Shown piece by piece: positions 2,487 through 27,127 of a DNA stretch of 64,000 nt. Under the pieces are notes generated by a model, which did no database searches, was not told the origin of the DNA, and saw only the letters and a program-made list of their open reading frames with translations. The translations under genes and the position numbers were made by a program. Origin of the DNA: an uncultured Candidatus Kuenenia sp. (lineage in GTDB: Bacteria > Planctomycetota > UBA11346); the NCBI GenBank assembly GCA_964654285.1, contig CAZZJC010000006.1, forward strand, positions 67,288-131,287, read 5' to 3'. Every line of letters begins with the position of its first letter. Position 1 is the stretch's first letter.

Positions 2487-2554
2487 GAGTCGGTTCTCTC
2501 AGGTTTGCCGGGAGTCCGGCTTCTTGCGACAAGGGCGATGGCGGCGCGAAGGAT

Positions 2555-3429: not shown

Positions 3430-3585
3430 CTCGCTCCCTGGTCGGGCTCAGGCAGGTCACCACTTGGGTGCGTTGACCGACCCGCCAACCAGGTCGCCCG
3501 AGACGCGTCAGGCAGGGAGGGCGTGGGCTACCCCGGCCAGCATTTCCGGAATTTCAGCGGCAAGAATTTCTGGCATCCATATCAC

Positions 3586-3936
3586 TTACACCGTTGACTC
3601 CCGCACTAATAGAACGACTCCGATGAGCACAAATCCCATACCGATCAGTTTGACCATACCCAGGCTTTCACCGAACCACCACCAACTGGCGACCGCCACG
3701 ATGCCCATGCCCACCCCGGTCATGATCGGATAGCCGACCGTCAAAGGGATCCGGGTCAGGGCGTAACTGTAGGCAACCAGCGCAAGGCCGAAACTCGTCA
3801 TGCCCAGGATATACCAGGGATCGTGCAGAACGCGGTCGAGCAACGGCCGGCTGACATCCCGGACGCCGGCCTTGACCAGCACATTGGCGGCGGCGTTGAG
3901 CACGACCCCGATGGCGAGAGCGATCCAGGTGATCAC
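3586..3936 (-). CDS. Small 4-TM DMT/EamA(ArnE/GtrA)-like membrane protein; candidate lipid-linked sugar flippase subunit
   Basis: VETVITWIALAIGVVLNAAANVLVKAG...GMGFVLIGVVLLV gives about 116 aa with four predicted TM helices. A GTG start overlaps the DprE2-like stop (GTGA), making it the last gene of the DPA-like operon. It is analogous to GtrA-like Rv3789 next to the mycobacterial DPA genes. Confidence 0.6.
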   Translation of the reverse strand: MITWIALAIGVVLNAAANVLVKAGVRDVSRPLLDRVLHDPWYILGMTSFGLALVAYSYALTRIPLTVGYPIMTGVGMGIVAVASWWWFGESLGMVKLIGMGFVLIGVVLLVRESTV

Positions 3937-4700
3937 AGTTTCAACCGCTTGAAGAGGCACTCGGGGATGCGGGTGATGATGGCCATGATCCAACGCCAGA
4001 ACCAGCGCGTGTAGAGCACGTTCCGCTTGCGGTCGATGGCGCGCAGGATGTCCCGCGCCACCTGTTCCGGCGTGGCGACGAGCGGCGAACCTTCTTTCAG
4101 CAGACCCGCCGTCATCGGTGTGGCGACGAATCCTGGCTTGATCGTCAGCACGTGTTTGCGCTCATGGAACAGCCGGTTCCGCAAGCCTTGCAGGTAGGCT
4201 GCCAAACCGGCCTTGGTGCTGCCGTACAGGTAGTTCGATTGGCGGCCGCGATCGCCCGCTACCGAACCGATCACCGCCAGAACGCCACCTTCAACCAGCG
4301 ATGGCACCAACGCCTCGCAGAGGACCACTACTGAACTGAAGTTCACCTGGATCTGGCGCAGCGCCAAGGTGGCATCCTGTTGCGCAGCACGTTGATCGGC
4401 CATGGTGCCGTAGGCGATGAGCACGGCTTGGACCCCATGCGGCGCCAAGGTACGCAACCGCGCTAGCAGATCACCGTGCTGCGCCGGATCGCCAGGATCG
4501 CAGGTGATCGCCACGGCTTCGACCGCTCCCCGCAGCCGAGCATCGGCCGCCACGCGTTCGCCTTCGGCGGCATCGCGCGACGTGAGGATCACGCGGGCGC
4601 CGCGCCCGGCCCAGGCGCGGACACATGCCCGGGCGATGCCGGATGTGGCGCCGATGACCAGGATGGAAGCAGCCTTTGGATTTCCGGTTGCATCAGTCAC
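3933..4700 (-). CDS. dprE2: Short-chain dehydrogenase; DprE2-like decaprenylphospho-2'-keto-ribose reductase homolog
   Basis: VTDATGNPKAASILVIGATSGIARA...NYLYGSTKAGLAAYLQGL...WRWIMAIITRIPECLFKRLKL aligns along its whole length with mycobacterial DprE2 ([22 protein letters not shown]...NFVYGSTKAGLDGFYLGL...[20 protein letters not shown]). A GTG start is proposed at 4698-4700; the listed ORF extends to an upstream ATG at 4775. Confidence 0.8.
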   Translation of the reverse strand: MTDATGNPKAASILVIGATSGIARACVRAWAGRGARVILTSRDAAEGERVAADARLRGAVEAVAITCDPGDPAQHGDLLARLRTLAPHGVQAVLIAYGTMADQRAAQQDATLALRQIQVNFSSVVVLCEALVPSLVEGGVLAVIGSVAGDRGRQSNYLYGSTKAGLAAYLQGLRNRLFHERKHVLTIKPGFVATPMTAGLLKEGSPLVATPEQVARDILRAIDRKRNVLYTRWFWRWIMAIITRIPECLFKRLKL

Positions 4701-4796
4701 GAAGGTTGCACCCCTGATATTGAATTTGGTGGTAGAGCCGTGGCAGGATTCTTGGCAGAAATGACGATCGATCAACGTGCACGCGCATCCGTACGT

Positions 4797-6140
4797 TCAT
4801 CCCACCAGCCCCAATCGCACCGCCAAGCGCGAGCGGACTCGACCGTGCGGGTCCAACTTTGCCTGGAATTGCCTGAATTCATCCAGGCGCGGATACATCG
4901 CCTGGACGGCGGCGGCACTGCCCAAGGTATCCTTGGCGAAGTAGATCCGGCCCTGATGCGCGAGCAGGATCGCCTGCAGGCGTTCATGCAACGCATGGAT
5001 GCGGTCGGCAGCGAACGGGATGTCGAGCGCCAGGGTGAATCCCGGGGCGAGGTAGGACAGCCAGCCTGGTCCGGCCGCGCCGCTGCGCTTGAGCACGGCC
5101 AGGAAACTCGCCAGGCGCGCATCGCTGATCGCCTCCAGCACCTGGCGCAATCCCGCCGCCGCGGTCGTATCCGGGAACCATGCCTGGAACTGGATGAAAC
5201 CGCGCGTGCCATAGATCCGGTTCCACTGATGGACGGCATCGAGCGGATAGAAGAACGTGTCGTAATCGACAATCTTGGTGCCGTCGCCGTGTTTCCAGTA
5301 AAAAGCTTGGTTGAACGCACTTACCGACCACGACCCCAGGGCCCAGGACGGAAAATCGAAGGGCACCGTCTTGCGCCCCTTGCGAGGGACGCTCATCGGC
5401 CGGTCGCGGTAGGCACGCGGCAGTTCCTCCGGTTCGGCGTCGTTCCCGAGCATCAGCACCGACCGGCCGAGGGCCGCACCGCGGGCCAGGCAGTCGATCC
5501 ACGCCACGCTGTAGCGATGTCCCTGATCTTCCTCAGCCAGACGGGCCAGGGCACGGTCGAGCCCCCCCGCACGTTCATAGCGGACCCGGTACCACGCCGA
5601 GGGCACCCGTCGCAACCGCAGGGTCACCGCCAGGATGAACCCCGTCAGGCCCATGCCGCCGACACTGGCCCAGAACAGGTGCGGATCATTGGCCGGGGTG
5701 ACGGACCGGATCTCGCCGCTCGGCAATGCCAGCACCAGTTCCGTCACATGGGCAGAGAAAGAACCGTCCACATGATGGTTCTTGCCATGCACATCCGCCG
5801 CCACCGCCCCACCCAGGGTGACGAACTTGGTTCCGGGCGTGGTCGGCAGGAAGAATCCCCGGGGTTGGAAATGCTCGATGATCGTCGCCAGACTCACCCC
5901 GGCCTCGGCGGTGAGCAGTCCGCTAGCGGGATCGAAGGCCAGGAAGCGATCGAGACCGGTGTTGCCCAGCACCACGCCACCATCGACGGCGGGCACCGCC
6001 GCATCGCCATACGAACGCCCCAAGCCGCGCGCAATCCAGGGTTGCGCCAGAAGCCTGGGCAGTTCTGCCCAGGTGGTGGGCAGGATGACCTGGCCGGGAA
6101 CTACCGGCACCCGACCCCAACCGGACAGCAACGTGGTCAT
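4797..6140 (-). CDS. dprE1: FAD-linked oxidase; DprE1-like decaprenylphospho-beta-D-ribose 2'-oxidase homolog
   Basis: MTTLLSGWGRVPV...ARGLGRSYGDAAV...PGTKFVTLGGAVAADVHGKNHH...YPRLDEFR matches the DprE1 N-terminal (LTGWGRT...RGLGRSYGD...PGT..VT.GGA.A.D.HGKNHH) and C-terminal regions. The start overlaps the stop of the upstream HAD-UbiA gene (ATGA). The listed 728-aa ORF carries a spurious N-terminal extension. Confidence 0.85.
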   Translation of the reverse strand: MTTLLSGWGRVPVVPGQVILPTTWAELPRLLAQPWIARGLGRSYGDAAVPAVDGGVVLGNTGLDRFLAFDPASGLLTAEAGVSLATIIEHFQPRGFFLPTTPGTKFVTLGGAVAADVHGKNHHVDGSFSAHVTELVLALPSGEIRSVTPANDPHLFWASVGGMGLTGFILAVTLRLRRVPSAWYRVRYERAGGLDRALARLAEEDQGHRYSVAWIDCLARGAALGRSVLMLGNDAEPEELPRAYRDRPMSVPRKGRKTVPFDFPSWALGSWSVSAFNQAFYWKHGDGTKIVDYDTFFYPLDAVHQWNRIYGTRGFIQFQAWFPDTTAAAGLRQVLEAISDARLASFLAVLKRSGAAGPGWLSYLAPGFTLALDIPFAADRIHALHERLQAILLAHQGRIYFAKDTLGSAAAVQAMYPRLDEFRQFQAKLDPHGRVRSRLAVRLGLVG

Positions 6141-7564
6141 GGTGATCCTTTCGGCCCGGCCCCCAGGATGAGTCCGATCGCAAGGATCACCATCACCCAG
6201 GAACCTCGATCCTTGATCGCGAACACGATGGGGTCGTCGTGCAGTTCGCCGCGTCCGGCCTTCAACCAGACCCGGCACGACCACCACAGGATGAGCGGCA
6301 CCAGTCCCCACAGCATCTCGGGTCGCTGATAGAGACCCGGTGCCGCCGGCCCGGCCACATATAGTCCTACCACCAGGGCGGTGGCGAAGGCCGCCGCGAT
6401 GCCGCCCGTGGTCACAAAGGGCAGATCCTCGGCCCGCCAGCCCCGGCCCTTGGCCCCGGCACCACCGGTGGACACCACGCCATGCAATTCCGCCGCCCGC
6501 TTGCCCAGGGCCAGGGACAGGAACAGGAAGACCAGCACCGCCATCAACCAGGGCGACAACGGGATCCCCAACGCGACCGCCCCCGCCACCGACCGCAACA
6601 CATAGAGTCCGGCAAGGATGAACACATCCAGCAGCACCTTGCGTTTGAGGGCGAACGAATATGCGAACGTGACCGTGTAATAGATCCCCAGCATCATCGC
6701 CCCCAGCGGCGAGGCGCACCAGGCCAGGATCCCGGCGGCGATCAGCAACGCTGGGGCCAGGACGAGACCATACAGCACCGGCAAGGTGCCGGCGGCGAAC
6801 GGTCGCCGCCGTTTGCGCGCATGCGCGCGATCGTTTTCCAGATCCAGGAGGTCGTTGAGGAGGTACACCGACGAGGCGCACAGACAGAAGGCGAGGAACA
6901 ACCACCCGGCCGCCAACCAAGTTCCCGTGGCGGTGACATGCGCCGCCAACAGGGGCAGGAAGACCAGCAGGTTCTTCACCCACTGGTGCGGCCGCAGGGC
7001 CTTGATCAGGGCCTTGCCACGTGAGGTCGCGTCGGGATGCCGCCCGAGCACCGGTGCACCGACGCGGGCTTCCGACCAGCCAGCGGCCGGTCCGGCGAGC
7101 ACGGCACCTGCACTCGCGCGCCAGATCGGAAGGTCAGCCGCGCAATCCCCAGCGTAGCAGAACGGACCCTGGGCATCGGCCTGGATCGCCTCCAATTTCG
7201 CGGCACCCTTGCGATTCACCGTGCCGGTGGCGATCACGCCATCGAAGCACCCCAGGTGGTCCGCCACTGCCTGGGCGATGCGTTCGTGCGCGGCGGTGGC
7301 CAATACCACCCGCCGCCCCACTGCCCGCTCGGCGCGAATCCATTCGACCAGTTCGCTTCGGTACGGCAGCAAGGCTGCATCTGGCATCACCCGTTCAGCC
7401 AACCAGGATTTGGCTGACAGCGCTCCCCGCAGAAGCACGAACGGGATCCGCCACGCCATCCAGGGTTGGCGGCGCACCGCCAAAGCGACCGAATCCCATA
7501 GGGAATCGCCGGGGTAGAGGGTGCCGTCGAGGTCGATATAGAGCGGGGGCACGGGCGATTGCAT
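6137..7564 (-). CDS. Fusion protein: N-terminal HAD-family phosphatase domain plus C-terminal UbiA-family prenyltransferase (decaprenyl-phosphate 5-phosphoribosyltransferase-like)
   Basis: MQSPVPPLYIDLDGTLYPGD is a HAD motif I (DxDGT). After about 190 aa come ~9 TM helices with ALRPHQWVKNLLVFLPLL and NDLLDLENDRAHARKRRRPFAAG, the UbiA Asp-rich prenyl-PP binding motifs. It is homologous to Rv3806c-type DPPR synthase. Confidence 0.8.
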   Translation of the reverse strand: MQSPVPPLYIDLDGTLYPGDSLWDSVALAVRRQPWMAWRIPFVLLRGALSAKSWLAERVMPDAALLPYRSELVEWIRAERAVGRRVVLATAAHERIAQAVADHLGCFDGVIATGTVNRKGAAKLEAIQADAQGPFCYAGDCAADLPIWRASAGAVLAGPAAGWSEARVGAPVLGRHPDATSRGKALIKALRPHQWVKNLLVFLPLLAAHVTATGTWLAAGWLFLAFCLCASSVYLLNDLLDLENDRAHARKRRRPFAAGTLPVLYGLVLAPALLIAAGILAWCASPLGAMMLGIYYTVTFAYSFALKRKVLLDVFILAGLYVLRSVAGAVALGIPLSPWLMAVLVFLFLSLALGKRAAELHGVVSTGGAGAKGRGWRAEDLPFVTTGGIAAAFATALVVGLYVAGPAAPGLYQRPEMLWGLVPLILWWSCRVWLKAGRGELHDDPIVFAIKDRGSWVMVILAIGLILGAGPKGSP

Positions 7565-9059: not shown

Positions 9060-9188
9060 TCCAACAACGCTTTTACCTAGTGCCACCTGCCTAGATGAAC
9101 CTATCCGACCAATTAGATCGCAGTCTAAACGAATGCGAGGGATTTTCAACTCGTGTCTTTCCTCTGGTGACGTTTCGCTTACGCGATT

Positions 9189-10055
9189 TCAGATGAGCTG
9201 CTCAGGTGGATACGACCTGTAGAGCCATGACGGTTTGCGACCATCACAAGCATGGGTAGCCCTGGCGCGGCAAAATAGGTACTGGCCAAGGTCTTCTCCT
9301 CGATGCGCGACCAACGGAGCGATGGTTTTCAGGTCGTAGAATTCGCCGGCGTGATTGTCATGTACATCCGAAGAAATCAACAAATCAACCGTAAATCCGG
9401 CGTGAGTCAGCAATCGGTGGAGGTCGTGCTTGTTGTATTCACGGTTGTGCCGCCCATGCGGACCGTAATGCGAATAGGGATCGTATATATTCACGCCAGC
9501 AAGCATGCGGGCGACGTTCTCAAGTCGGCACACGTTGGGAGTGCTGAGGATAAGGGTACCCCCGGGCACCAGACTGCGGTGCAGACGAAGCAGGAACTGT
9601 AGTGGGTCGCGTATGAGATGCTCAATCACCTCGCAGCACAGGACGACCTCGAAGTTGGTTGCCCAGGGTGATTCAGCGACCTCCATGTCAAGGTTGGGAT
9701 ACGACATGTCGTAGCGTTCGCCCGTCATGGCATTAACCATCGTTTGCAAACCATTGGCAGGCAATCCCTCGAAATAATTAAGACATTGTACCTGCCAGGA
9801 TGTAAATCGTCGCAGGAGCAGGGTCGTAAAATATGGGTTTGAACCGACCTCAAGCAGACGGCCGCTGCCGGGCGGAACAAGTGACAATGTCAAGAGGAAT
9901 CGACGAAAATCCGTATCTAGGTACGAACGCAACGCTGATGGATCAGCATTGTCGAGCGAAAACCCGGCGAGCCAATCCCTGAGCGCTACTTCGTCCCATC
10001 CCGGTGGGCAGGTGAAGGGCAGCGGTGTAAGGAGCGGAAATAATTTGATCGTCAT
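9189..10055 (-). CDS. Class I SAM-dependent methyltransferase
   Basis: LLEVGSNPYFTTLLL...VVLCCEVIEHLIRDP...LVPGGTLILSTPN shows SAM-methyltransferase motifs I, II and III. The start overlaps the stop of the 1160-aa GT (ATGA). GC is lower here. Confidence 0.75.
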   Translation of the reverse strand: MTIKLFPLLTPLPFTCPPGWDEVALRDWLAGFSLDNADPSALRSYLDTDFRRFLLTLSLVPPGSGRLLEVGSNPYFTTLLLRRFTSWQVQCLNYFEGLPANGLQTMVNAMTGERYDMSYPNLDMEVAESPWATNFEVVLCCEVIEHLIRDPLQFLLRLHRSLVPGGTLILSTPNVCRLENVARMLAGVNIYDPYSHYGPHGRHNREYNKHDLHRLLTHAGFTVDLLISSDVHDNHAGEFYDLKTIAPLVAHRGEDLGQYLFCRARATHACDGRKPSWLYRSYPPEQLI

Positions 10056-13000
10056 GGGTGGTCCTGGGTTGCTTCATATAGCCCGCCTGAAACAAGCAAA
10101 GCCGTGATCTGTTCCGGCGCATGGCGCTGACGCACCCATGCGGCAGCTTGGCCCACCGTTCCCAGGTCAAGAGTGGCCCTGACGGCTGGGGCGAATTCGT
10201 GGGAATCTGCCCAGTCGCGTCCGCCACCGCTGCGTTGGGTGAGGTCGACAGTGACACCACAGCGACGGTTGACTAGAGTCGGGCGGCCAAGCGACCACGC
10301 CTCGAGGATGACCAGAGACAGGCTTTCATTGGGAGAAGGATTGATGAGCAGACCACAACCGGCTATGGCGTCCCACCGACTCGTCTCGTCTACGAAGCCC
10401 AATGCCTTCACGTCAGGATGATCGGGAACCTGCATCGCAGCCCTGCCGATCAAGACCAGGGGAGGAAGACCGGCACCGGCCGCCTGGGCAGCCAAGTAAT
10501 GGTCGAATAGAAGGTCGCACCCTTTGCCTGGGTCGATACGGCCCAGGTAGAGTATGTAACCGCGTTGCAGTCCATGACGGACCAAAAAGCGATCACTGTC
10601 CACGTTGGTAGGCGGTTGGATGGCAGCTGAGACCACAGGCCCATCCACGCTGAGGTCATGGAAACGCATCCGCACGTGCCTGCGTTCCCATTCACTGAGG
10701 TACCAGAACGCCTTGGGCAGGCGGAAAAGACGGTCCCAAAAGCCAAAACGCATGCACCATTCGTCATGAGCGCAGGGTGCCAGGATGGCACGATCAGCAA
10801 CGAGTGGCAGACCAAACCATGTGGTCGCATAGAGGTAGCCCACAAATATCACGGCATCGTATTGGTTTCCGTTGCGACGCAGGTGGTCGTTGAGGGAACT
10901 GCTCACCGGCCCTTGCAAACGCATCCATCGGTCGGCGTCGTCTGGTCCGGCATTCTCAAGTCCAGTTTGTACAAGTTCAGCACTGCACGCATCGAAGGCA
11001 GTGACGTTGCGGGGAATATCGACCTTGAAACGTCGCACCCGGACGCCCTCAACCTCGTCATCGCCAACTTGATAAAAATTCTCCCAGGTCATGTAATCAC
11101 GGGCGCAAGTTGTTAGTACCTCGACTTGGTTTCGTCCCAGACAACTACCCACCAGTCTGGCCCAAGCCAGGGCGAGGGCCTCGGCGCCGCCAGCAACCTC
11201 GCGCCCACAACGGGTGACCACCACAGCAACTTTAGGCGGAAAAGCCGCCTGCAGGGCCGACAACCAGATCGGACGAACAACAGCTGGAAGAAAGTCACGC
11301 AGTCGCTTTCGTTGGCCGATCAGGATCCGGCGGCGGTCTGCGGGTTCCATTGCGGCGGCGATGGCCGTCGCAATGGCGGTATCGTCTGCGTCTGGCGGCA
11401 AGCACACGCCAGCCCCACCCAAAGTCTCGCCCACTGCGGCATGGTTGAGGGCAACTACCGGCACTTCAAAGGCCATGGCTTCGACGAGCGGGACACCAAA
11501 GCCCTCGTGTTCTGACACTGATACGTAGACATCGGCGGCACGATACGCGGCAGCCAATTGAGCCTGGGTGGCCTTGGTAATTATGCGCACCTGTCCTGTC
11601 AGATCCTCGGCCGTGAGGTCGGCGAGAACAAAGCGAGACCAGTCATCACCAGCGTCAAAATGGCCAACTAAAATGAGACTGGCCGGTATTTTATTCGCGC
11701 GTAACCGGCGAAGGATGGCCAACAATCGATCCTGGCGTTTGTTGGGCGCTAAGCGCCCAACAAAAAGAAGGCGCGGCGACGGCAGTAAGAGCAATTCGGA
11801 TTCAAGAGCGTTCTCGGGCGGTTGACACCAGGTCTCGGGCTGAAAAGGGAGTGTCAGGATGTCACCGGCTGGCGGCAGATGGACGGCACGTGCAAACTCG
11901 TCCCGATTGAACACGGAATCGTGAAATCGTATCGGGAATGCCGCTGCCAATGCCGGCAAGGCTTCAATGCCGGCCTGCAGATTACTGGCTGTCTGAGGGT
12001 CATGCGCGAAGAACCGTGGCGGTGTGATATTGTGGTCAAGCAAAGCCTTGGGTCCGCGATATGAGACCGCCCAATCGGTCGCTGGCGAACCTATGCTGTG
12101 ATGGTAAATTATCGGTTCATCGGTAAGCGAAACCGACGGTAGCGGTAAAACTCGATCAGCTAGTGCAGGGTCGAGGTAGCGGGCGATCAGTTTGCTGTCC
12201 ATTCCCCAACTGCGAAACCAACTTTGTACTGCGATGGCCTCGGAACTAATGGCATCACCAGGGCGGCAGGCGGTCAGCACTTGGTGCAAGTGACGCCTGA
12301 TCAACGGGAATCCTGGCGGTCGGCTAAGGGAGTCGACCAGAGTAATAATGCGGTCAATGACCTTGTCCCAACTCGACAACTCGCGTCCAGTAGCTTGACC
12401 GACCTTGCCCCATGCCGCCAGTTTCTCTGCGTCTGCGTCGGCTAGTTCGCCAATGATTCGTTGCCAGTCATTATCCGAATTAGCCATGGGAGCGCCGGCT
12501 ATCGCCGCCGCCTCGGCGGTGGCGTTACACCGCGCATCGACTGCAACCGGCCGGCCTAGATGCCAGGCCTCCATGAGGACCCGTGAGTAGGCTTCGTGGC
12601 GGCTTGGAACTGCAAGGGCTAGGCAATTAGCCAGTAGCCAGTTGCGGGTGCCATTGTCGACTAAACCAAGATCATGGACGCAATTTGGCAGATCGGCATA
12701 GCTGCGCCCATCGCTACCCGGTCCAGCAAAGACAAGGTCGAGCCCGCAACCACCTGCCGCCCGCCAGCGGAGGAAGGCGTCAGTTAGAACATTGCAGCCC
12801 TTGGAGGGATCGCGACGTCCGAGACAAAGCAAAAATCGTCCAAGGCCAGAAGTCGCCGCAGGGGGCGAGGCTGGAATTGCCAACGTCTCGGGTTCGATAC
12901 CAGTGCCAACCATGTGCAGACGACCATGCAAACCGGCCCCGAGAAGCCGGATAGCCAGCGAGGCCTCGCCAGTGCTGATCGCGGCTATAGCAGGTACCGA

Positions 13001-13534
13001 CATCGCAAGACGCGAAACGGCGGCCATGCGCGCATAGCCTTCATCATGAAGGCAAGGCATCAGTATGCCACGCGATCCGGCTAGACGTACCGCATCGAGA
13101 ACTAAACCAAAACCATAGGGCAGACCTATAACTGCAGCGTAGTCTGTCACATGCCTGGCGATGCGCCGTAAAAGGCTTGGGCTATTGATCCCGTGTGCCA
13201 AGAAGGCGTCCTCGACCCCTGGAGGGATCGCTCCGACAGGTGCGTGATCCCACTCGCCGCGAATGAACCGGATGTTGGCATTATCAAAAGCCGTGCTGTC
13301 GCGCTGACTGACCAGAAAGCGGCGCACCAGCACCGGGCCATCCAGACTGAGACCGGGATGCAGGACGTTGTTCGACCAGGGATCTTGGAAACGTGGAACG
13401 CAGGTGGTCAGAATCTCCACCCGGCGTCCACGTTGACTCAAGCGATGGGCCAGGGCACGGGCCAGACTCTCGGCCCCTCCCTGGCAATTGGGGCCATACC
13501 ATGGCACGACGATAGCAATGGGTTGCCCGTTCAT
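10052..13534 (-). CDS. Three-module GT4 (GT-B) glycosyltransferase, 1160 aa, WbdA/WxcA-like polymerising mannosyl/rhamnosyltransferase
   Basis: Module 1 (aa 1-~400) IAIVVPWYGPNCQGGAESLARALAHRLSQRGRRVEILTTC; module 2 (~400-770) ...FVGRLAPNKRQDRLL...EHEGFGVPLVEAMAFEVPVVA; module 3 (~775-1160) KVAVVVTRCGREVAGGAEALALAWARLVG...VEVLTTC...LEAWSLGRPTLV. The modules are paralogous to the ORFs at 19293..21608 and 21605..22777. Confidence 0.85.
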   Translation of the reverse strand: MNGQPIAIVVPWYGPNCQGGAESLARALAHRLSQRGRRVEILTTCVPRFQDPWSNNVLHPGLSLDGPVLVRRFLVSQRDSTAFDNANIRFIRGEWDHAPVGAIPPGVEDAFLAHGINSPSLLRRIARHVTDYAAVIGLPYGFGLVLDAVRLAGSRGILMPCLHDEGYARMAAVSRLAMSVPAIAAISTGEASLAIRLLGAGLHGRLHMVGTGIEPETLAIPASPPAATSGLGRFLLCLGRRDPSKGCNVLTDAFLRWRAAGGCGLDLVFAGPGSDGRSYADLPNCVHDLGLVDNGTRNWLLANCLALAVPSRHEAYSRVLMEAWHLGRPVAVDARCNATAEAAAIAGAPMANSDNDWQRIIGELADADAEKLAAWGKVGQATGRELSSWDKVIDRIITLVDSLSRPPGFPLIRRHLHQVLTACRPGDAISSEAIAVQSWFRSWGMDSKLIARYLDPALADRVLPLPSVSLTDEPIIYHHSIGSPATDWAVSYRGPKALLDHNITPPRFFAHDPQTASNLQAGIEALPALAAAFPIRFHDSVFNRDEFARAVHLPPAGDILTLPFQPETWCQPPENALESELLLLPSPRLLFVGRLAPNKRQDRLLAILRRLRANKIPASLILVGHFDAGDDWSRFVLADLTAEDLTGQVRIITKATQAQLAAAYRAADVYVSVSEHEGFGVPLVEAMAFEVPVVALNHAAVGETLGGAGVCLPPDADDTAIATAIAAAMEPADRRRILIGQRKRLRDFLPAVVRPIWLSALQAAFPPKVAVVVTRCGREVAGGAEALALAWARLVGSCLGRNQVEVLTTCARDYMTWENFYQVGDDEVEGVRVRRFKVDIPRNVTAFDACSAELVQTGLENAGPDDADRWMRLQGPVSSSLNDHLRRNGNQYDAVIFVGYLYATTWFGLPLVADRAILAPCAHDEWCMRFGFWDRLFRLPKAFWYLSEWERRHVRMRFHDLSVDGPVVSAAIQPPTNVDSDRFLVRHGLQRGYILYLGRIDPGKGCDLLFDHYLAAQAAGAGLPPLVLIGRAAMQVPDHPDVKALGFVDETSRWDAIAGCGLLINPSPNESLSLVILEAWSLGRPTLVNRRCGVTVDLTQRSGGGRDWADSHEFAPAVRATLDLGTVGQAAAWVRQRHAPEQITALLVSGGLYEATQDHP

Positions 13535-15345
13535 GACCGTCCCCCCGGCTTGATGCTGATCAGGCCGAGATCCTGAGGACCATGGAGTGCGAGGTTAATC
13601 CTTGCCCGCGCATCCGTATCGCCGATGACAGTAGAGAGCGCCGCGCCGTCTGTATGTAAGTGCAATGGGCCGACCACCGTGAACCCGCCTTCGGCGACCA
13701 GTACTTCAAGAAGGGCGCGCGGCACCGGCCGCAAATGGGTTGGATCGAGCCAAAAAGTGTTGGCCCCCACCTGCAGGTTGGATGAATCTGGCGTCTCGAT
13801 CATCAACAGACCGCCCGGGGCCAGAGCGCGGTAGGAGGCCCGAATGAGACGCCAGATTCGATCAATCGGTAGATGCTCGACGACATGGAAGACAGAAACA
13901 ACGGCTAAGTTATCCTCAGGTTGAGACTCCAGCCAAGCGCAACCTTCATTAAGTTCAGCCCGCTGTCCCTTGATTCGGAGCGCTTCGACGAACTCTTTAT
14001 TAAGATCAATGCCGATAGGATCGCAATCTTCGGCAATCAACTCGAGCCATTCTCCACGACCACAACCGATATCAGCAACGGTGCGCAGTCCTGTGCGCGA
14101 CACAGCAGCCACAAGGTGCGGCCTATAGACTGCAACACGGTTGTGTATATCCACCATGGAACCGCGCAAACGCGCCTCGATTGCTGCGTAGACTCGGTCT
14201 AACTGCGCCTGCGTCGCATCAGAGGAGGAGAGGGGGGCCTGGGCGAGTGCGATCCGGTCGACCACAGAGGTCATTGCTGCAAGACGATGTTCGAGAGTCT
14301 GGCTTTGTAGGAGTAGGCCGGCTTCTGCCTCAACCTGATGCGCAACGCCCGCCTCCAAGTCGCCCAATTTTCCCACCTGGATTTGTAACGAGATTTCGAG
14401 AGCCTCCTGGCGTTCACCCATGGCCCGGATCTTGGCCTCGCATGGGGCGATGCGGTGTTGCGCGTCGACCACTTGCGCAAGCGCATGTGTCGTGCGCCGG
14501 GATTCCTGCTCTTGACGCTCGACGATGGTCTGAATATGCGCCTCAGTAGAACGAACGCGCTTGTCCGTGACGTCTGTCCGGGTCTCAACACCGGTCAACC
14601 TCGCGGATTGCGTGGCAAGGGATTGTTCACAGGCTTTCAGACGGGATCCAAGTTCCATTACCGATTCGGAGCCAACGTGGATGGCGTCCTCAATGGCCCC
14701 GATCTGATCGAGAATCGAGAGGATGGCCAAGTGGCGTTCGTGGTTGAGTTGGAGCACCAGATCGCGCAATGCCGTCGCTTTTGATTCCAGATTGGCGTCT
14801 ATTCGCTGAGTCTCGACAAACCGCTGATGGTTGAAATCAAGCATTTGCGCCGACAGCGCCGCGACCGATTGGTGGCGTTCGTGATTCAGAGTCAGCGCCA
14901 AGGAGCGCGTATGGGATAATTCGATCAACATATTGCGCATCTCGAGAACCTGACTCTCGATTCTTTCGCGGGCCTCAATCTCCATCCGTAATCGGCAACC
15001 GAGGGCATCACGATGGCGGTCCAGGAGTGAGAATGGAAGCAAGAGGCGTGCCAATCCAAGCAGTCGGCCGAGAATCGGGATGCGGGAAATGCGTTGACGC
15101 CAACGAAACCGGCTTAACCCCGGGAATGGTGCTGTAGCTGATCTGGACTTTCCTTCCATTGATTCAGCCAAGGCAAGGACAATTTCTAGCTTTGATAAAC
15201 GCCCGTCAGTCAAGGCGGACAGATGTAAGTTCATACCCGACGAATCGGGCCCTCTACCAAGAATCGAATGATATGCGGCAAGCAGGAACTCAGGTCCATC
15301 CAACGCCAGTAGAGCATCCATATCCACCGGATTCGGATAATTCAT
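13531..15345 (-). CDS. WbdD-like chain terminator/ruler candidate: N-terminal DUF4214, central coiled coil, C-terminal class I SAM methyltransferase
   Basis: N-terminal FLLAAYHSILGRGPDSSGMNLHLSALTDG...LALAES resembles DUF4214. About 250 aa follow with heptad-like repeats (LTLNHERHQSV..., LVLQLNHERHLAIL...). The C-terminus has VADIGCGRGEWLELI...VFHVVEHLP...LAPGGLLMIETPD, the methyltransferase motifs. The gene is ATGA-coupled to both neighbours. Confidence 0.7.
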   Translation of the reverse strand: MNYPNPVDMDALLALDGPEFLLAAYHSILGRGPDSSGMNLHLSALTDGRLSKLEIVLALAESMEGKSRSATAPFPGLSRFRWRQRISRIPILGRLLGLARLLLPFSLLDRHRDALGCRLRMEIEARERIESQVLEMRNMLIELSHTRSLALTLNHERHQSVAALSAQMLDFNHQRFVETQRIDANLESKATALRDLVLQLNHERHLAILSILDQIGAIEDAIHVGSESVMELGSRLKACEQSLATQSARLTGVETRTDVTDKRVRSTEAHIQTIVERQEQESRRTTHALAQVVDAQHRIAPCEAKIRAMGERQEALEISLQIQVGKLGDLEAGVAHQVEAEAGLLLQSQTLEHRLAAMTSVVDRIALAQAPLSSSDATQAQLDRVYAAIEARLRGSMVDIHNRVAVYRPHLVAAVSRTGLRTVADIGCGRGEWLELIAEDCDPIGIDLNKEFVEALRIKGQRAELNEGCAWLESQPEDNLAVVSVFHVVEHLPIDRIWRLIRASYRALAPGGLLMIETPDSSNLQVGANTFWLDPTHLRPVPRALLEVLVAEGGFTVVGPLHLHTDGAALSTVIGDTDARARINLALHGPQDLGLISIKPGGRS

Positions 15346-16583
15346 ACCGGCACCAGCGCCTTTTTATCCGTGGCTTCCGACAAGGTGGCTCGTAATCGGG
15401 TGTGACCTATAAACATTGGCCCAATGATGCCTTTCACTGTGAAGCTCGTAAGGTTGTCATGCCAATGGTAGCAGTCCTTAAGATGATGGTCCTGACTGTG
15501 GATGGCTACAGTGAGCGAATATTTTCCCGGGGCAATATCCATGTCCATGGTGAATCGGAAACAATAACGCTTACCGGGAACAACCTCGGGACGATGACCG
15601 AGATGCCAGGAATTGGTACCGAAGACATCCTGGCCGAAACGGTCGGTGATCTTGATCCCGATGGTCGCCTGGGGAATGGGGTGCTCGCAGTCGATCTCGA
15701 TCTCGATGGTGGTCGACTCTCCACTCTGGACCACATCGCCATGCGAGATCGAACCCAGGATGCGGGCGGCGACGATCCGGGCGGCATAGGTCCCGTAGGA
15801 TTGCTCGGCTTGCCTGGCTAAGGTGGAGATCTTCTGCGCCTGGATCCGATCCTCGCTATCTCCCATCTTGGCGAGAAGGAAATTGTAGGCGTTGGTCACC
15901 GGCTCAGGCAGTCCATCTTCGATCACCCGACCGCGATGGAGGAGGATCGCCCGATCGGTCAGGAGTTTGATCGAGTTCATGTCGTGGGAGACGAGGATCA
16001 GACTGCCGCCCTTGGCCTTGAAGGCGCGGATCCGTTCCAGGCATTTGGCGCCGAAGTGGGCGTCGCCCACCGACAGGGCCTCGTCGACGATGAAGCAGAC
16101 CGGTTCACTGTGGATGGCTATGGAGAATCCCAACCGCATCAACATGCCGCTGGAATAGGTCTTGACTGGTTCGTGGATGAAATCGCCGAGTTCGGTGAAG
16201 TCGATGATGGCCTGACGTTTGCTGGCGATTTCTGGTGGCGTCATGCCAAGAATGAGACCGCTGAGATGGATGTTTTCGATCCCGGAGAGTTGATTATTGA
16301 AACCGGCGCCGATCGCGAGCAGTCCGATCCGGCCGGCGCCATCGACGGAGATCCGGCCCTGGTCCGGGAGAAGCATGCCGGCCAGAATCCTGAGCAGGGT
16401 GCTCTTGCCGGCACCATTAGGGCCGATCACGCCGAGAGATTCACCCGGTTGCAAGGTGAAGGAGATGTCGTCCAGTGCCTGGAAATCCTTGTGATAGGGC
16501 CGCCGAAAGAGGATCTCCTTGAGCCGGTCCGCAGGATTGCGATACAGGCGAAACCGCTTGCTGATGTGGTCGACCGAAATCAT
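15342..16583 (-). CDS. wzt: O-antigen/teichoic-acid export ABC transporter ATP-binding protein (Wzt/TagH family) with a C-terminal glycan-binding domain
   Basis: [20 protein letters not shown] is the Walker A; [14 protein letters not shown] is the ABC signature; [11 protein letters not shown] is the Walker B. An extra C-terminal domain of about 160 aa is typical of Wzt. Confidence 0.9.
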
Positions 16584-17347
16584 AGGAAATCCCGGACATC
16601 ACGTTCAAGACGGCGGAAGAGCAGCACTGCCACCAGACTCAGGAGGCATCCGACGAGGAGCATCCCCATCAGGACATGCCAATCAGGGAATTGGTGCAGG
16701 ATGAAGATCCGGTGGTAGCAGTCGATGCCGATCGCGGTCGGGTTGGCCTCGACCACTGGTCGTACCGCCGCCGGCACGATGTCCTTGAGGTAGACGATCG
16801 GAGTGAGCCAGAACCAGAGCTGGAAGACGATGTTGGCAACTTCCTTGAGGTCGGGCAGGAAGACCGTGAAGGTGGCAAGGAGCAGGCCGATGCCGTAGGC
16901 GATGAGTTGCTGCGCGATGAACACCGGGATCAGGGCCACCAGCGGCCAACCAGGAAATTCCCCGTTGGCGAAAGTCAACACCAGGAGGATGCCGGTAGTC
17001 ACCAGGTAGGTGAAGGTCTCGGCCAGGATGATGTAAATTGGCAACAGAGGCAGACTGGTCTGCATCTGCTGGATCATCGGCTTTTTGTCGCTGAAGACGG
17101 TGGCGCATCGCAAGCACGTCATGCTGAAGGCGGTCCAGGGCAGCAGTCCGCTCATCAGGTAGATGCCATAACCCCAGGCGGAACCGTTGCCCGGCAGGCG
17201 GGCGGACATGATCTGGGAAAAGATCACCGTGAAGATGAAGACCATCACCAACGGCTGGATCAGGGCCCAGGTGCCGCCCAGGGCGGAGCCGCTGAACCGG
17301 TCGGTGAGGTCCCGTCGGGCGAGATGGAGGAGCAGGGCCGGCGACAT
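16580..17347 (-). CDS. wzm: ABC-2 type polysaccharide export permease (Wzm)
   Basis: MSPALLLHLARRDLTDRFSGSALGGTWALIQPL... has six TM helices in an ABC-2 permease architecture. Its stop overlaps the wzt start (ATGA). The listed 302-aa ORF has an N-terminal extension, so the start is placed at M48. Confidence 0.85.
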   Translation of the reverse strand: MSPALLLHLARRDLTDRFSGSALGGTWALIQPLVMVFIFTVIFSQIMSARLPGNGSAWGYGIYLMSGLLPWTAFSMTCLRCATVFSDKKPMIQQMQTSLPLLPIYIILAETFTYLVTTGILLVLTFANGEFPGWPLVALIPVFIAQQLIAYGIGLLLATFTVFLPDLKEVANIVFQLWFWLTPIVYLKDIVPAAVRPVVEANPTAIGIDCYHRIFILHQFPDWHVLMGMLLVGCLLSLVAVLLFRRLERDVRDFL

Positions 17348-17418
17348 GGAAGGCGCGGCACCATATAGGAGCCTTGCGCAGTATCCAGGGGGCTTGAGGT
17401 GGCGGCAACGATCCAAGG

Positions 17419-18531
17419 TCATCCCGCAGCACTGCGGGTCCGGGCGAGTTCGAGCATGGCCCACATGACCTGGGCAGAACAGTGCCAACCGCCCGGTTGA
17501 GCAGGCTGTGGTCGATGAATCCCGCCCTGTGCCAGCGCAGCCAAGGCATCAGCGAATCCCGACACCGTCAGGGACACCGGGCGCAGTGCGTCGCTGGCCG
17601 CCTCGCGCAATTCCGGCAAATCTCCCGCAATCACCGGGGTGCCGCAGCGGGCTGCTTCCAGGGCGGGCATGCCGAAACCCTCATACCGGGTAGGAAACAG
17701 CAGGGCTTCTGCCCCGGTCATCAACGCGGGGAGATCAGTCCGCGGAACATAGCCGAGATGGTGGATGGGTGCACCCGATACGCGGGCAGAGCGTGCCAAA
17801 GGATCCGCGCCCCAACCGCTACGCCCGGCGACCGCCAATTTGAGCCTGCCCAGGCGTCCAGCGGTGTGGACCTGTTCCGCAGCGGCAAGAAGCAGTCCAT
17901 AGTTTTTGCGGGGTTCCCTGGTACCGACTGCGAGGGCATAGGGTTTCTCCAAACCGTGCCGACGCAGGACCGCGCTCACCTCTGCCACCGGCCTGGGTGA
18001 GAAACCCGGGTCGGCATCCGGTCGGGCGATACCATCAACAGTATGACCATAGCGGTCCTGGATGCGCTTGGCTGTGCCCGCCGAGATGGCAACTGCGGCA
18101 TCTGCGCGCCGCAAATCACTGGCAAAGAACATCTTGGCGACGATCCGCCCGCCCAGGGTCATGGAATCAGGCGCTTCGAGGTGGACCACATCGTAGAGTG
18201 TGAGCAGTCCGGGGATCCCCTTGGGGCAACGCGGCATGGCCATGCTGCACCCCCAGAAGGCATCGATGCGGTCGCCGCGCAGCATGGCCCCGACTCGTTC
18301 GCGCATCCATACGGTCTGCGGCACGCCTCTGGGCCACCAGGGATCGGTACGCCAGAAGTGTTCGATCCCAGGCAGGTCGATATCCTGCCGACACGGCAGG
18401 TAGATGACCACTTCCAGGGGGCGGATCGCTGCCATCGCCCGCAGCAGGGCCGCGACATAGAGGCCAATTCCTGCGACGGGAGCGCGCACAGCACGGCCAT
18501 CGATGGCGAGGCGGAAGGGAGGGTCTGACAT
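17419..18531 (-). CDS. GT4 family glycosyltransferase (group 1)
   Basis: MSDPPFRLAIDGRAVRAPVAGIGLYV...VGTREPRKNYGLLL...RYEGFGMPALEAARCGTPVIAGD carries the GT4 EX7E region. The start is placed at M99 of the listed ORF because the N-terminal 98 aa look non-proteinaceous. Confidence 0.8.
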   Translation of the reverse strand: MSDPPFRLAIDGRAVRAPVAGIGLYVAALLRAMAAIRPLEVVIYLPCRQDIDLPGIEHFWRTDPWWPRGVPQTVWMRERVGAMLRGDRIDAFWGCSMAMPRCPKGIPGLLTLYDVVHLEAPDSMTLGGRIVAKMFFASDLRRADAAVAISAGTAKRIQDRYGHTVDGIARPDADPGFSPRPVAEVSAVLRRHGLEKPYALAVGTREPRKNYGLLLAAAEQVHTAGRLGRLKLAVAGRSGWGADPLARSARVSGAPIHHLGYVPRTDLPALMTGAEALLFPTRYEGFGMPALEAARCGTPVIAGDLPELREAASDALRPVSLTVSGFADALAALAQGGIHRPQPAQPGGWHCSAQVMWAMLELARTRSAAG

Positions 18532-18603
18532 CGTCGCGGGAACCCGGCTGAGGGCGAGGCCTGCATAGGCTGCTATCGGAGCGGGGCAAGATGTCCGTCG
18601 CCG

Positions 18604-23963: not shown

Positions 23964-25361
23964 ATGAACCGTGCGCAGCAATCGGGGATTCTCTGGTGCG
24001 ATATCGGGGATCTCCTCGACTATTTCGCTCTTTATTCTCGTCCATCTGGAATTCAACGGGTAGTGGTAGAGGTTCTGCGGATGGCGCGACTGCGGTGCCT
24101 GCCCGAAGTGCGTTTGTGCCGGATCACCCCGGGTGGACGGCTGCTGCACCTGGACTGGAGTTGGCTTGATCAGGTGTCCAAACCCCCGACACCGCCGGTA
24201 GTAGCCGCCCCAGGCAAACCTCATCTCATTTCGGTGAAATTGGCCACCCACCTGCGCCAATGTGCGAAAAACGCTGTGCATTTGACATTCGCGTGTTTCC
24301 CGGGCGACAGCGGTGATCGATTCCGTCGATGGATCCGCCCCTTGCGCATTCCGCCAGCCCGACGGAAATGGCATGCGTCACTGGCGGCCGCAGGTGTTCC
24401 CTCGCTGCCGTCCGCTAGCGATCTGGTGGTGACCCTTGGTGCCCCCTGGATCCGACCTGGCTGCGAAAAGGATATGGAGCAGGTCCTGGCGCAAAGTGGG
24501 GCACGTTACGCGGTGCTCGTCTACGACTTGATTCCGCTCACCCATCCGCATCTGTTTCCGGATGAGCCGAACCCGTTCATGCCCTGGTTGGATTGGGCCC
24601 TCAAGCGGGCCTGTCTGGTGCAGACGATATCCCATTATTCTGCCCGGACGATTGCAGCCTACCGGGAAAATCGTGGCTTTCCCCTGGTCCCTACCGAGGT
24701 CATCCGCCTCGGCGATCCCCTGCAGGCATCGACGCGTGCCCCCAATCCGCTGCCCCCTCATATCAGGTTCATCCTCTGCGTTGGCACCATCGAAGCCCGC
24801 AAGAACCATCGCTTGCTGCTGGATACCTGGTTGATCCTGCGGGAGCGATTGGGGGAAAGATGCCCGCATCTGGTCTGGGCCGGACGCAAGGGCTGGTTGG
24901 TGGACGACCTGTTCACCCAACTCCGCGCCGCCCGCTGGCTCGAGGGACGCATCATCCATCTTCCCCAGGCCAGTGACGCCGAGTTGGAAACCCTGTACCG
25001 GGATTCGCTGTTCACTGTCTATCCCAGCCTGGCGGAAGGATGGGGCTTGCCGGTCGCTGAAAGTTTGTCCCGGGGCAAGGTGTGTATTGCCTCCAATAGC
25101 ACGTCGATCCCGGAAATCGCAGGCGACTTGCCTTACTTCATTGATCCCTTCGATCCACGTTCTTTGGCCGAACTAATCTGTCGTCTCCTCGACCAACCAG
25201 CCGAACTTGCTGCCCGGGAAGTCCGTATCCGGGAAACGTGGCGGGCACAACCCTGGTCGGTCTGTGCGGATCAGGTGTTGCGAGGTCTGGAAGAAACATT
25301 GGTCCTGAACGAATCCTGCCGATCACAAAGCACTGGTCCGAGCTGGTTGGGTCAGTCTTGA
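23964..25361 (+). CDS. GT4 family glycosyltransferase
   Basis: ...ILCVGTIEARKNHRLLLDTW...YPSLAEGWGLPVAESLSRGKVCIASNSTSIPEIAGD carries the GT4 EX7E motif region. Confidence 0.8.
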   Translation: MNRAQQSGILWCDIGDLLDYFALYSRPSGIQRVVVEVLRMARLRCLPEVRLCRITPGGRLLHLDWSWLDQVSKPPTPPVVAAPGKPHLISVKLATHLRQCAKNAVHLTFACFPGDSGDRFRRWIRPLRIPPARRKWHASLAAAGVPSLPSASDLVVTLGAPWIRPGCEKDMEQVLAQSGARYAVLVYDLIPLTHPHLFPDEPNPFMPWLDWALKRACLVQTISHYSARTIAAYRENRGFPLVPTEVIRLGDPLQASTRAPNPLPPHIRFILCVGTIEARKNHRLLLDTWLILRERLGERCPHLVWAGRKGWLVDDLFTQLRAARWLEGRIIHLPQASDAELETLYRDSLFTVYPSLAEGWGLPVAESLSRGKVCIASNSTSIPEIAGDLPYFIDPFDPRSLAELICRLLDQPAELAAREVRIRETWRAQPWSVCADQVLRGLEETLVLNESCRSQSTGPSWLGQS

Positions 25362-27127
25362 CCGTAAACGCGACGTATCGGTTGCCAATCCGACCAGTCC
25401 CAGATCCGATCCGGACGGGAATCAACCGAGACTGGGGTGCTATTCCATTCGTGCGGACCAAAGGACCTGACTGCCCGCCAATGCACCACCGCCCCAGCGG
25501 CCACTAACAAGCCGATGAACAGGAGAACGGGTTTTTGCCAGGCTGAATGGCATTTGAGGATCTTGATGATGAAAGGCACGCATAGCAAGGCGATGCTGAC
25601 GTATAGAGGTGCTTGTAAGCGGGGTCCGAAACTCCACCCACCCCACCAGTGTGGAAAGCAGGCAATGAGTATGGTTCCGACCACGACGTGCGCCGTAACT
25701 CCAATCCACAACCAGCGTCGATCCCGGTCGTAGACGATTCCTACTACCGCCCCCGGGATCGCGGCCAACATGACCGGATTGAAAATGAAAAAGCCGCGGT
25801 TGGGACTGAACCACTGGCCGAGGATGGCCTGCGGGAATACGGACGGATCAATGCGATTCCCACCATAATAGGGTGGGAATATCGTGCCGAATGCCGTCCA
25901 GGACCATGTGATAAAAAAAACGAGGACTAGCCCACATCCAAGCGCGAACCCAACCAACGGTGCGATGCGCCAACGATTGCCCAGAATCAGAAAGAGCAGC
26001 GCCACGGGTCCAATTAGCGCACCGTCTGGTCGGCACACGAAGGCAAATCCGACCAGCAGACCGGCCGCCAACGCGAGCAGCGGACCTCTGGCAGCGAGGG
26101 CCGCCCACCACGCAGCGGTCAGGCACGCTAGCATGGTGGAACTCGACCAGATAGAAAGCCCGTGTATACTGAGATGGGACGTAGCGAGTGTGAATACGGA
26201 TGCGCATATCGTTGCCGTCATCAAACCAGTTCCGACCTCCAATAGAAGGCCAAGGAATAGGGTTGCGGTCAAGGCGGTCATCACTCGGGAGGCCCATACG
26301 GCCACCGTTTGATCATCGAACCCCAAGATGTTCTGCACTGCCACGAAAGGGAGCAGCAGGCAGGAAGTTCCTGGTGGGAAGTAGTTGTATGGATTCCCGG
26401 TCGCGCCTAGGCGTATCCCGTAACTTTGCACAGTTACGATCTGCTCCTGCCACGCTGATAGGTCCAACGTCCTCTGGTAGAGGATTGCCTGAGCACCAGG
26501 AACATTCCACATATTATCACCAGTTCCAGCCAAGTTTTGGTGCCCGGTACCCAACCCAACCAGTACCAGGATGACAAGGAAGAAACCTGCCAACATGCGA
26601 AATCGCCCCGACGGGGTCAAAGCCACCAAGGCGATGGAAAGCACCCCCAAGCCGGCCAGCAGCCAACTAACTCCGTTAGCGGTCCCTGATCGGACCGCGA
26701 TGCGAAGTTGGTCAATGACTAACTCGGGTGTAGAAAGCTGGGAAAAAACACGCAATTCTACTTGCGCTGGAACCTTGGGGCCGGTCTGAAATGCGCGTAT
26801 TGCGTGCTTAGCCGATGGTGGGAATACCACCTCCTGAGCACCATCATCGTATCCCGGGGCCATGAGATCTATATGGATTTGTACAGGGGTGCGAGTTGAA
26901 AGCCACACGGTATAGGTAGACGAAGGTAGGGGCTTAATCACCCGCCACGTGAGCGACGGCAACCGGACTGTTCCATTGGCATCGACGGGAATCGACGACT
27001 GCCAAGCAGCTGGACTTTCCACCAACACGGTGTCGCCAATGCCCAGTCGGATGGAAATTCCCCAGGCGAGCAACAATATTCCTATGGCAACACCAAGCAA
27101 CCGGAAGAGAAACCAGCGGTTGATCAT
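25352..27127 (-). CDS. Large polytopic membrane protein (one N-terminal TM helix, ~170-aa periplasmic domain, then ≥10 TM helices); candidate GT-C-type lipid-linked-sugar glycosyltransferase
   Basis: MINRWFLFRLLGVAIGILLLAWG is a signal-anchor. A soluble β-rich segment follows, then a long hydrophobic region. The start overlaps the cysC stop (ATGA). GC is lower than in flanking DNA. No family was recognised from sequence alone. Confidence 0.55.
   Translation of the reverse strand: MINRWFLFRLLGVAIGILLLAWGISIRLGIGDTVLVESPAAWQSSIPVDANGTVRLPSLTWRVIKPLPSSTYTVWLSTRTPVQIHIDLMAPGYDDGAQEVVFPPSAKHAIRAFQTGPKVPAQVELRVFSQLSTPELVIDQLRIAVRSGTANGVSWLLAGLGVLSIALVALTPSGRFRMLAGFFLVILVLVGLGTGHQNLAGTGDNMWNVPGAQAILYQRTLDLSAWQEQIVTVQSYGIRLGATGNPYNYFPPGTSCLLLPFVAVQNILGFDDQTVAVWASRVMTALTATLFLGLLLEVGTGLMTATICASVFTLATSHLSIHGLSIWSSSTMLACLTAAWWAALAARGPLLALAAGLLVGFAFVCRPDGALIGPVALLFLILGNRWRIAPLVGFALGCGLVLVFFITWSWTAFGTIFPPYYGGNRIDPSVFPQAILGQWFSPNRGFFIFNPVMLAAIPGAVVGIVYDRDRRWLWIGVTAHVVVGTILIACFPHWWGGWSFGPRLQAPLYVSIALLCVPFIIKILKCHSAWQKPVLLFIGLLVAAGAVVHWRAVRSFGPHEWNSTPVSVDSRPDRIWDWSDWQPIRRVYGQD

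Follow-up and report, generated by a model that had tools for sequence, protein, structure and literature searches.

A HAD–UbiA fusion gene with DprE1- and DprE2-like neighbours, probably encoding a polyprenyl-phosphate ribofuranose synthase, at the edge of a surface-glycan cluster from an uncultured bacterium

We examined a 64,000-nucleotide stretch of contig CAZZJC010000006.1 (positions 67,288 to 131,287; hereafter the window), in which a reverse-strand gene encodes an N-terminal HAD phosphatase domain fused to a C-terminal UbiA-fold membrane domain, and in which genes for DprE1-like and DprE2-like proteins follow directly downstream. Sequence comparison makes it likely that the fusion protein is a bifunctional polyprenyl-phosphate ribofuranose synthase of the type represented by ORF15 of Citrobacter youngae, acting within a five-step pathway to D-arabinofuranose (Araf) side chains. 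The fusion gene, its domains and the genes downstream of it are the following.

6137..7564, reverse strand: fusion gene, 475 amino acids, predicted bifunctional polyprenyl-phosphate 5-phosphoribosyltransferase (UbiA/PPPRS) and phosphoribose 5-phosphatase (HAD/PRP); open frame, NF006088, AlphaFold (AF2) model
7040..7564, reverse strand: HAD phosphatase domain, residues 1 to about 175; Pfam PF12710, motif conservation, Foldseek, DSSP
6140..7021, reverse strand: UbiA-fold membrane domain, residues about 182–475, nine predicted transmembrane helices; Pfam PF01040, PDB 8j8j
4797..6140, reverse strand: DprE1-like flavin adenine dinucleotide (FAD) oxidase, 447 amino acids; NF053785, PDB 4aut
3933..4775, reverse strand: DprE2-like short-chain dehydrogenase/reductase (SDR), open reading frame (ORF) of 280 amino acids with an uncertain start (homology from about residue 27); Pfam adh_short, NCBIfam
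3586..3945 (ORF open to 3993), reverse strand: small SMR/EamA/ArnE-like membrane protein of about 119 amino acids, candidate flippase; Pfam PF00893

The fusion gene is a single open frame of 475 codons, with its ATG at 7564 and its TGA at 6139–6137, and an identical 475-residue sequence has already been deposited in a public collection as a predicted protein. The initial annotation of this DNA had placed the HAD and UbiA domains on one polypeptide with the HAD domain at the N-terminus, and its coordinates and domain order proved exact when compared with the Pfam matches and the single ORF. It had also allowed for the two domains being separate ORFs; we found one frame, and homologues that carry both domains. 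Both Pfam domains are present, in proteins of about 478 residues, in 113 of the 120 best database homologues; plasmid or chromid records with a match over at least 80% of the fusion length number 80; and the AF2 model, for which the input was an alignment of 24 homologues, is confident along the entire chain (predicted local confidence, pLDDT, 92; predicted template-modelling score, pTM, 0.87). Two ORFs, or a frameshift between them, are ruled out by these three observations. In the model, a Rossmann-type core with a helical cap is followed by a short linker and then by nine long helices. A longer form, starting at a TTG at 7729, is disfavoured because homologues begin just before the segment P-L-Y-V-D-L-D-G-T-L and because the shorter form is the one predicted publicly. 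The 728-residue ORF at 4797..6983, which overlaps the fusion gene, is not a gene; its DprE1 homology begins at residue 284, and the ATG at 6140 gives the 447-residue protein. We also rejected the forward-strand ORF at 4476..6329 and other antisense ORFs, which are without family matches and are shadow ORFs of high-GC DNA; those that seem to be 'conserved' between loci are artefacts of the sense genes.

The N-terminal domain was matched by Pfam HAD PF12710 over residues 11–147 (E 5e-10, 40.5 bits against a cut-off of 27). Motif I is D11-L-D13-G-T-L (nt 7534–7517), and motifs II, III and IV are T90, K123 and G139-D140...D144, so that the full set, whose absence would have spoken against the initial annotation, is present. 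Conservation was read from alignments of 24 and then 198 homologues; in the latter each of the four motifs is kept in at least 193 of the 198 sequences, when T or S is allowed at 90 and D or N at 140, and this near-invariance holds across fused homologues with or without DprE1. DSSP assignment on the AF2 model places the cap helices (residues 21–81) between strand 8–10 and strand 86–93, the strands that bear motifs I and II. In a Foldseek search the N-terminal part found HAD-IB/phosphoserine-phosphatase-like structures, 3fvv and SerB, with weak scores (E about 2e-3). No PAP2 domain was detected by Pfam in the fusion or in the operon genes examined, to which that scan was limited.

The C-terminal domain was matched by Pfam UbiA PF01040 over residues 201–436 (E 2e-20, 73.5 bits against a cut-off of 34.2), and the nine long helices of the model cover residues 192–469. 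Its motifs, N237-D238..D241..D245 (nt 6856–6830) and K355-R356..E359, are equally constant, with N237, D238, D241, D245, K355, R356 and E359 each kept in at least 193 of the 198 homologues. The closest structure in the PDB is Mycobacterium tuberculosis Rv3806c (8j8j), both by sequence (E 1.2e-33, residues 185–402) and by fold (Foldseek with the C-terminal part, E 6.8e-12, template-modelling score 0.83 on the target). Scores against the mycobacterial equivalog models for decaprenylphosphoryl-5-phosphoribose (DPPR) synthase all lie under their cut-offs, at 169.6 of 207 bits for NF008978, 147.7 of 474 for NF008976 and 121.3 of 234 for NF008977. The UbiA part of the fusion is a homologue of the mycobacterial DPPR synthase, with the same fold and motifs, that lies outside those NCBIfam equivalogs.

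The same domain architecture has been characterized in C. youngae O1, where ORF15 (AWU66546.1) begins with a HAD PRP domain and ends with a polyprenyl phosphoribosyltransferase of the UbiA type (Kelly, Duong, Nothof, Lowary and Whitfield, PNAS 2024, PMC11127046; hereafter Kelly et al., 2024). Membranes containing ORF15 convert phosphoribosyl pyrophosphate (PRPP) and farnesyl phosphate to farnesyl-phosphate-ribofuranose (Ribf), the D18A substitution in HAD loop I leads to accumulation of the Ribf-5-phosphate lipid, and N247, D248, D251 and D255 are required for transfer (Kelly et al., 2024). The catalytic residues probed in ORF15, D18, N247, D248, D251, D255, R366 and E369, have apparent counterparts in D11, N237, D238, D241, D245, R356 and E359 of the window protein, since the internal spacing is equal in the two proteins: 0, +1, +4 and +8 along the N-D-D-D motif, 119 residues from N to R and +3 from R to E. 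The same authors defined a three-component system of synthase, small flippase and glycosyltransferase of the GT-C fold, noted a PPPRS with a PRP domain in P. syringae B728a, and contrasted the HAD-family PRPs with the unrelated Rv3807c (Kelly et al., 2024). The proposal of the initial annotation that a non-orthologous HAD enzyme replaces the PAP2-type Rv3807c step fits both the sequence and this ORF15 biochemistry.

The TGA of the fusion gene overlaps the ATG of the DprE1-like gene (ATGA at 6140–6137), which suggests that the two are translationally coupled. The DprE1-like protein, an identical 447-residue copy of which is present in a public collection, matches NCBIfam NF053785 with 411 bits (E 8e-123), under the equivalog cut-off of 500, and PDB DprE1 4aut with E 1.4e-78, and it keeps the catalytic Lys (YxAKD). 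Near its C-terminal third an Ala (P-G-F-T-L-A-L-D-I-P) stands where the mycobacterial enzyme has the Cys that reacts with benzothiazinones (G-W-N-V-C-V-D-F-P); because of this replacement, covalent inhibitors of the benzothiazinone type would not be expected to affect the protein. Directly downstream of this FAD oxidase lies the DprE2-like SDR, which matches Pfam adh_short (E 5e-27) and NF005489 (285 bits against a cut-off of 267), and which reaches 161 bits (E 3e-47) with the DprE2 model NF053786, under its cut-off of 250. The small membrane protein that follows matches Pfam PF00893 (E 2e-8) and, over its full length but weakly, the ArnE flippase subunit (E 2.7e-6, under the cut-off).

Taken end to end, the fusion is a member of NCBIfam NF006088 (PRK08238, 'UbiA family prenyltransferase', 482 positions), with residues 5–469 aligned on profile positions 11–479 at 543.6 bits against a cut-off of 351. 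When one genome was scanned for each GTDB species, fusion-encoding loci turned up in at least 595 species, and neighbourhoods were counted in the closest 80 of these loci, which span Proteobacteria, Myxococcota, Verrucomicrobiota, Bacteroidota, Acidobacteriota, Planctomycetota and Nitrospirota; some homologues are annotated '4-hydroxybenzoate polyprenyltransferase/phosphoserine phosphatase'. The phage collection yielded a partial match to the UbiA part alone (33% coverage); the phage case that Kelly et al. cite did not come up in it. The survey proposed in the initial annotation, of whether HAD–UbiA fusions occur together with DprE1/E2 across genomes, came out positive: a DprE1 homologue is present in 53 of the 80 loci, in 50 of them directly downstream of the fusion on the same strand, and 46 loci have homologues of both DprE1 and DprE2, most of those with DprE1 only being on cut contigs. 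The remaining 27 loci, some of them on short contigs, have no DprE1/E2 homologue; in several loci without DprE1 the gene next after the fusion encodes a small EamA/SMR protein instead. An EamA/SMR protein of 125 residues, similar to that of the window, occurs near the fusion in seven related loci, mostly just downstream. A compact cassette is annotated on a Salipiger plasmid, with the UbiA fusion, GtrA, an FAD oxidoreductase, an SDR and GT87. Both the HAD–UbiA fusion and its pairing with DprE1/E2 are therefore already known and widespread, in a curated family and in print, Araf/DprE1–E2 variants included, with the fusion architecture biochemically characterized in 2024 (Kelly et al., 2024), and the novelty implied by the initial annotation has to be given up.

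Several related loci contain further genes. Seven (L004, L022, L033, L035, L058, L060 and L078 in our numbering) encode, downstream of DprE2, a multi-pass protein of about 612 residues without a Pfam family. A partly overlapping set of 12–16 loci has an NAD epimerase, an amine-oxidase-like flavoprotein and GtrA, mostly after fusion–DprE1–DprE2; the cassette is larger there and brings in additional enzymes that may modify the sugar. In most of 16 loci (L006, L009, L011, L051 and L055 among them) a 330-residue LPG_synthase_TM membrane protein (PF03706) is encoded by the gene just before the fusion; the window has no counterpart of it.

Upstream of the fusion gene lie genes for an acyltransferase-3, methyltransferases, several GT4 enzymes, Wzt, Wzm, a GHMP kinase and an adenylyl-sulfate (APS) kinase. 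On this gene content the locus is an ABC-transporter-dependent surface-glycan cluster, with the fusion operon at its edge. The features of the cluster that bear on the argument, identified by Pfam and NCBIfam matches unless stated, are the following.

10052..17488, reverse strand: Wzm/Wzt glycan backbone machinery
10052–13534, reverse strand: multi-GT4 enzyme, 1160 amino acids
13531–15345, reverse strand: protein with DUF4214 and methyltransferase domains, 604 amino acids, possible chain terminator
15342–16583, reverse strand: Wzt with a C-terminal carbohydrate-binding domain
16580–17488, reverse strand: Wzm
25352..27127, reverse strand: membrane protein of 591 amino acids with a GT-C fold and a beta-sandwich resembling a carbohydrate-binding module (CBM) at residues about 33–146, after the first helix; candidate glycosyltransferase for the lipid-linked pentofuranose; identified by its fold

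The G+C content of the cluster (8000–28000) is 50–65%, against about 67–77% elsewhere in the window, a difference that fits acquisition by horizontal transfer, the usual situation for O-antigen loci. The neighbouring DUF4214/methyltransferase and CBM-bearing Wzt proteins resemble the pairing of terminator and CBM-Wzt in systems of the E. coli O9a type and in C. youngae O1. The same glycan locus encodes, together with the fusion, a glycosyltransferase of the GT-C fold; this 591-residue protein is without a Pfam family and has 28 detectable relatives among 5.8 billion proteins.

Other observations concern the rest of the cluster and its end. A GHMP sugar kinase, weakly HddA-like (22778–23965, reverse strand), and the adenylyl-sulfate kinase (27124–27843, reverse strand) lie inside the cluster and point tentatively to a sugar of the heptose type and to a sulfated glycan. 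At the other end, the rmlC gene (dTDP-4-dehydrorhamnose 3,5-epimerase; 1905–2490, reverse strand) has an in-frame stop at about 2298–2300, where G-L-H-Y-Q should continue, and is either a pseudogene or the result of a sequencing error. An AAA_14/DUF4143 ATPase (684–1892, forward strand) and an ORF weakly similar to AbiEii-like nucleotidyltransferases (2555–3463, reverse strand), the latter located between rmlC and the SMR gene at the damaged cluster edge, suggest that defence genes or mobile DNA have been inserted there.

We propose the following pathway. The UbiA-fold domain would transfer ribose-5-phosphate from PRPP to polyprenyl phosphate at the cytoplasmic face of the membrane, and the fused cytoplasmic HAD domain, with D11 as the nucleophile, would then remove the 5-phosphate to give polyprenyl-phosphate-beta-D-ribofuranose. 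The DprE1-like oxidase and DprE2-like reductase, presumably co-transcribed with the synthase, would epimerize C2 to yield polyprenyl-phosphate-D-arabinofuranose. The SMR/ArnE-like protein may flip this lipid-linked sugar to the periplasm, where a GT-C enzyme, probably the 591-residue protein encoded at 25352–27127, would add Araf side chains to the glycan exported by Wzm/Wzt. The first two steps are supported by strong homology to a characterized architecture, the activities being those shown in the literature for the homologue ORF15, so that we regard them as likely properties of the window protein; the three later steps and the identities of lipid and acceptor we infer from homology and gene context. 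As the lipid carrier, undecaprenyl phosphate is more likely than decaprenyl phosphate, since the DNA seems to come from an uncultured diderm lineage and includes a Wzm/Wzt glycan cluster. For the same reason the names DPPR and decaprenylphosphoryl ribose (DPR), which the initial annotation had given to the intermediates and which presume decaprenyl phosphate, seem ill chosen. From the mechanism put forward there, a phosphoribosyltransferase and a HAD phosphatase in one chain, with DprE1/E2-like enzymes downstream, we retain the enzymes and their order; the decaprenyl naming goes the way of the novelty, as does channelling of PRPP through DPPR to DPR, which is shown neither here nor in the literature.

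Comparison with known systems places the window closest to C. youngae, with which it shares a HAD–UbiA fusion in an ABC-transporter-dependent cluster of O-antigen type, a CBM-bearing GT-C and a CBM-Wzt, and, less certainly, a small flippase (a candidate in the window) and a terminator protein (a possible one in the window). It differs in that ORF15 feeds Ribf (O1) or, via an SDR epimerase, xylofuranose (Xylf; O2), whereas the DprE1/E2-like genes of the window predict Araf, and in that the GT-C of the window has its CBM-like domain at the N-terminus and is not shown to belong to GT136. Candidate systems for Araf-containing glycans do carry DprE1/E2 homologues (Kelly et al., 2024), and the isolates shown in SI Fig. 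S11 of that study include Stenotrophomonas maltophilia and Rathayibacter strains. Like these predicted Araf systems, the window has a probable synthase, DprE1/E2-like epimerases, a candidate transporter and a GT-C in a surface-glycan locus; they come from cultured Proteobacteria and Actinobacteria with known glycans, whereas the window derives from an uncultured lineage and has a GT-C of a rare family. The predicted chemistry is also that of M. tuberculosis, where PRPP is converted through lipid-phosphate-Ribf-5-phosphate and lipid-phosphate-Ribf to lipid-phosphate-Araf by Rv3806c, Rv3807c and DprE1/DprE2, and the transferase, oxidase and reductase are homologous. Mycobacteria, however, use a separate non-HAD phosphatase (Kelly et al., 2024; of the PAP2 family according to the initial annotation), decaprenyl phosphate as the lipid and Rv3789 as the flippase. 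A further Gram-negative homologue of Rv3806c provides a lipid-linked D-Araf donor in the pilin pathway of P. aeruginosa PA7/Pa5196 (PsPA7_6246 and neighbours); unlike the window protein, this PPPRS is without a fused HAD domain, and the acceptor is pilin, modified through TfpW. We take the P. aeruginosa pathway to use DprE1/E2-like enzymes as well.

A number of points weigh against the pathway as proposed. What was observed directly is domain architecture, motifs, folds and conserved gene order, and the catalytic roles of the window protein are predictions. Its kinship to ORF15 was judged by architecture, by motif spacing and by the common relative Rv3806c. In ORF15 itself the D18A variant kept some dephosphorylating activity (Kelly et al., 2024), so that the HAD domain may not be the sole phosphatase. 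The DprE1-like and DprE2-like proteins both score under the mycobacterial NCBIfam equivalog cut-offs, and C2 epimerization is therefore deduced from homology and synteny. About 18 kb separate the operon from the GT-C candidate, whose family is rare and unclassified and for which tblastn gave no homologue in the 80 related loci; when the SMR protein and the acyltransferase of the window were searched in the same way, one weak SMR match and otherwise essentially nothing was found, so that the link of these three proteins to the fusion is without synteny support elsewhere.

The distance of the GT-C from the operon, together with the position of the operon at the cluster edge beside the disrupted rmlC and the AbiEii-like fragment, could mean that the pentofuranose goes to another acceptor, for instance to a protein such as pilin, to an exopolysaccharide or to lipid A-core, with the 591-residue GT-C serving in another pathway; P. 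aeruginosa applies the same chemistry to pilin glycosylation (Kelly et al., 2024). We consider this doubtful, though worth keeping in mind. Among the cluster genes examined there is no second polyprenyl-phosphate-sugar synthase, the GT-C bears a CBM-like domain as does the O-antigen-modifying ORF12 (Kelly et al., 2024), and the C. youngae prototype likewise combines a CBM-Wzt with a terminator protein.

It is less probable still that the end product is a sugar other than Araf, such as ribofuranose, a 2-keto intermediate or xylofuranose, with the DprE1/E2-like pair performing another redox reaction on the lipid-linked sugar. Ribf and Xylf versions of the pathway do exist (Kelly et al., 2024), DprE1/E2 homologues are missing from the 27 loci mentioned above, and both proteins fall short of the equivalog cut-offs (411 against 500 and 161 against 250 bits). 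Yet DprE1 is by far the best structural relative of the oxidase (E 1e-78), the catalytic Lys is kept, and Araf-containing glycans have been associated with just such a tight E1-like/E2-like pair placed right behind the synthase gene (Kelly et al., 2024). Finally, that the HAD domain acts on some other phospho-substrate, or as a structural or regulatory module while a separate phosphatase serves the lipid, is very improbable: the residual product formation of ORF15 D18A (Kelly et al., 2024) and the weak resemblance of the domain to structures that are phosphoserine-phosphatase-like or without assigned function can be read in its favour, but D18A accumulates the Ribf-5-phosphate lipid, the four motifs hardly vary among fused homologues, both those with DprE1 and those without, and the operon genes examined lack a PAP2 domain.

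Beyond the glycan cluster, the window encodes an [FeFe]-hydrogenase maturase HydG of 481 residues (30921–32366, forward strand), the nearest homologue of which is 90% identical and the best named relatives of which, about 67% identical, are from metagenome-assembled genomes of Planctomycetes, Phycisphaerae, Acidobacteria and Krumholzibacteria; the approximate placement of the source lineage given above was read from these relatives. It also encodes a Ser/Thr protein kinase (51466–54066, reverse strand) and a hybrid histidine kinase of 1416 residues with Cache, CHASE, PAS and two receiver domains (55695–59945, forward strand).

Assignment of the fusion as a polyprenyl-phosphate ribofuranose synthase has a practical value for annotation, in that a gene now named 'UbiA family prenyltransferase' or '4-hydroxybenzoate polyprenyltransferase/phosphoserine phosphatase' becomes readable as such a synthase. 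The only mildly unusual element of the locus is the rare GT-C with its N-terminal CBM-like domain, which probably completes the system. We suggest, tentatively and at somewhat less than even confidence, that it is the first known member of a new family of D-arabinofuranosyltransferases, which would decorate an O-antigen-like glycan in an uncultured, possibly Planctomycetota-related lineage; we know of no report of D-Araf surface glycans in Planctomycetota-related lineages. The synthase assignment predicts a surface glycan with D-Araf side chains in an uncultured diderm of high GC content, and marks this rare GT-C as the likely transferase.

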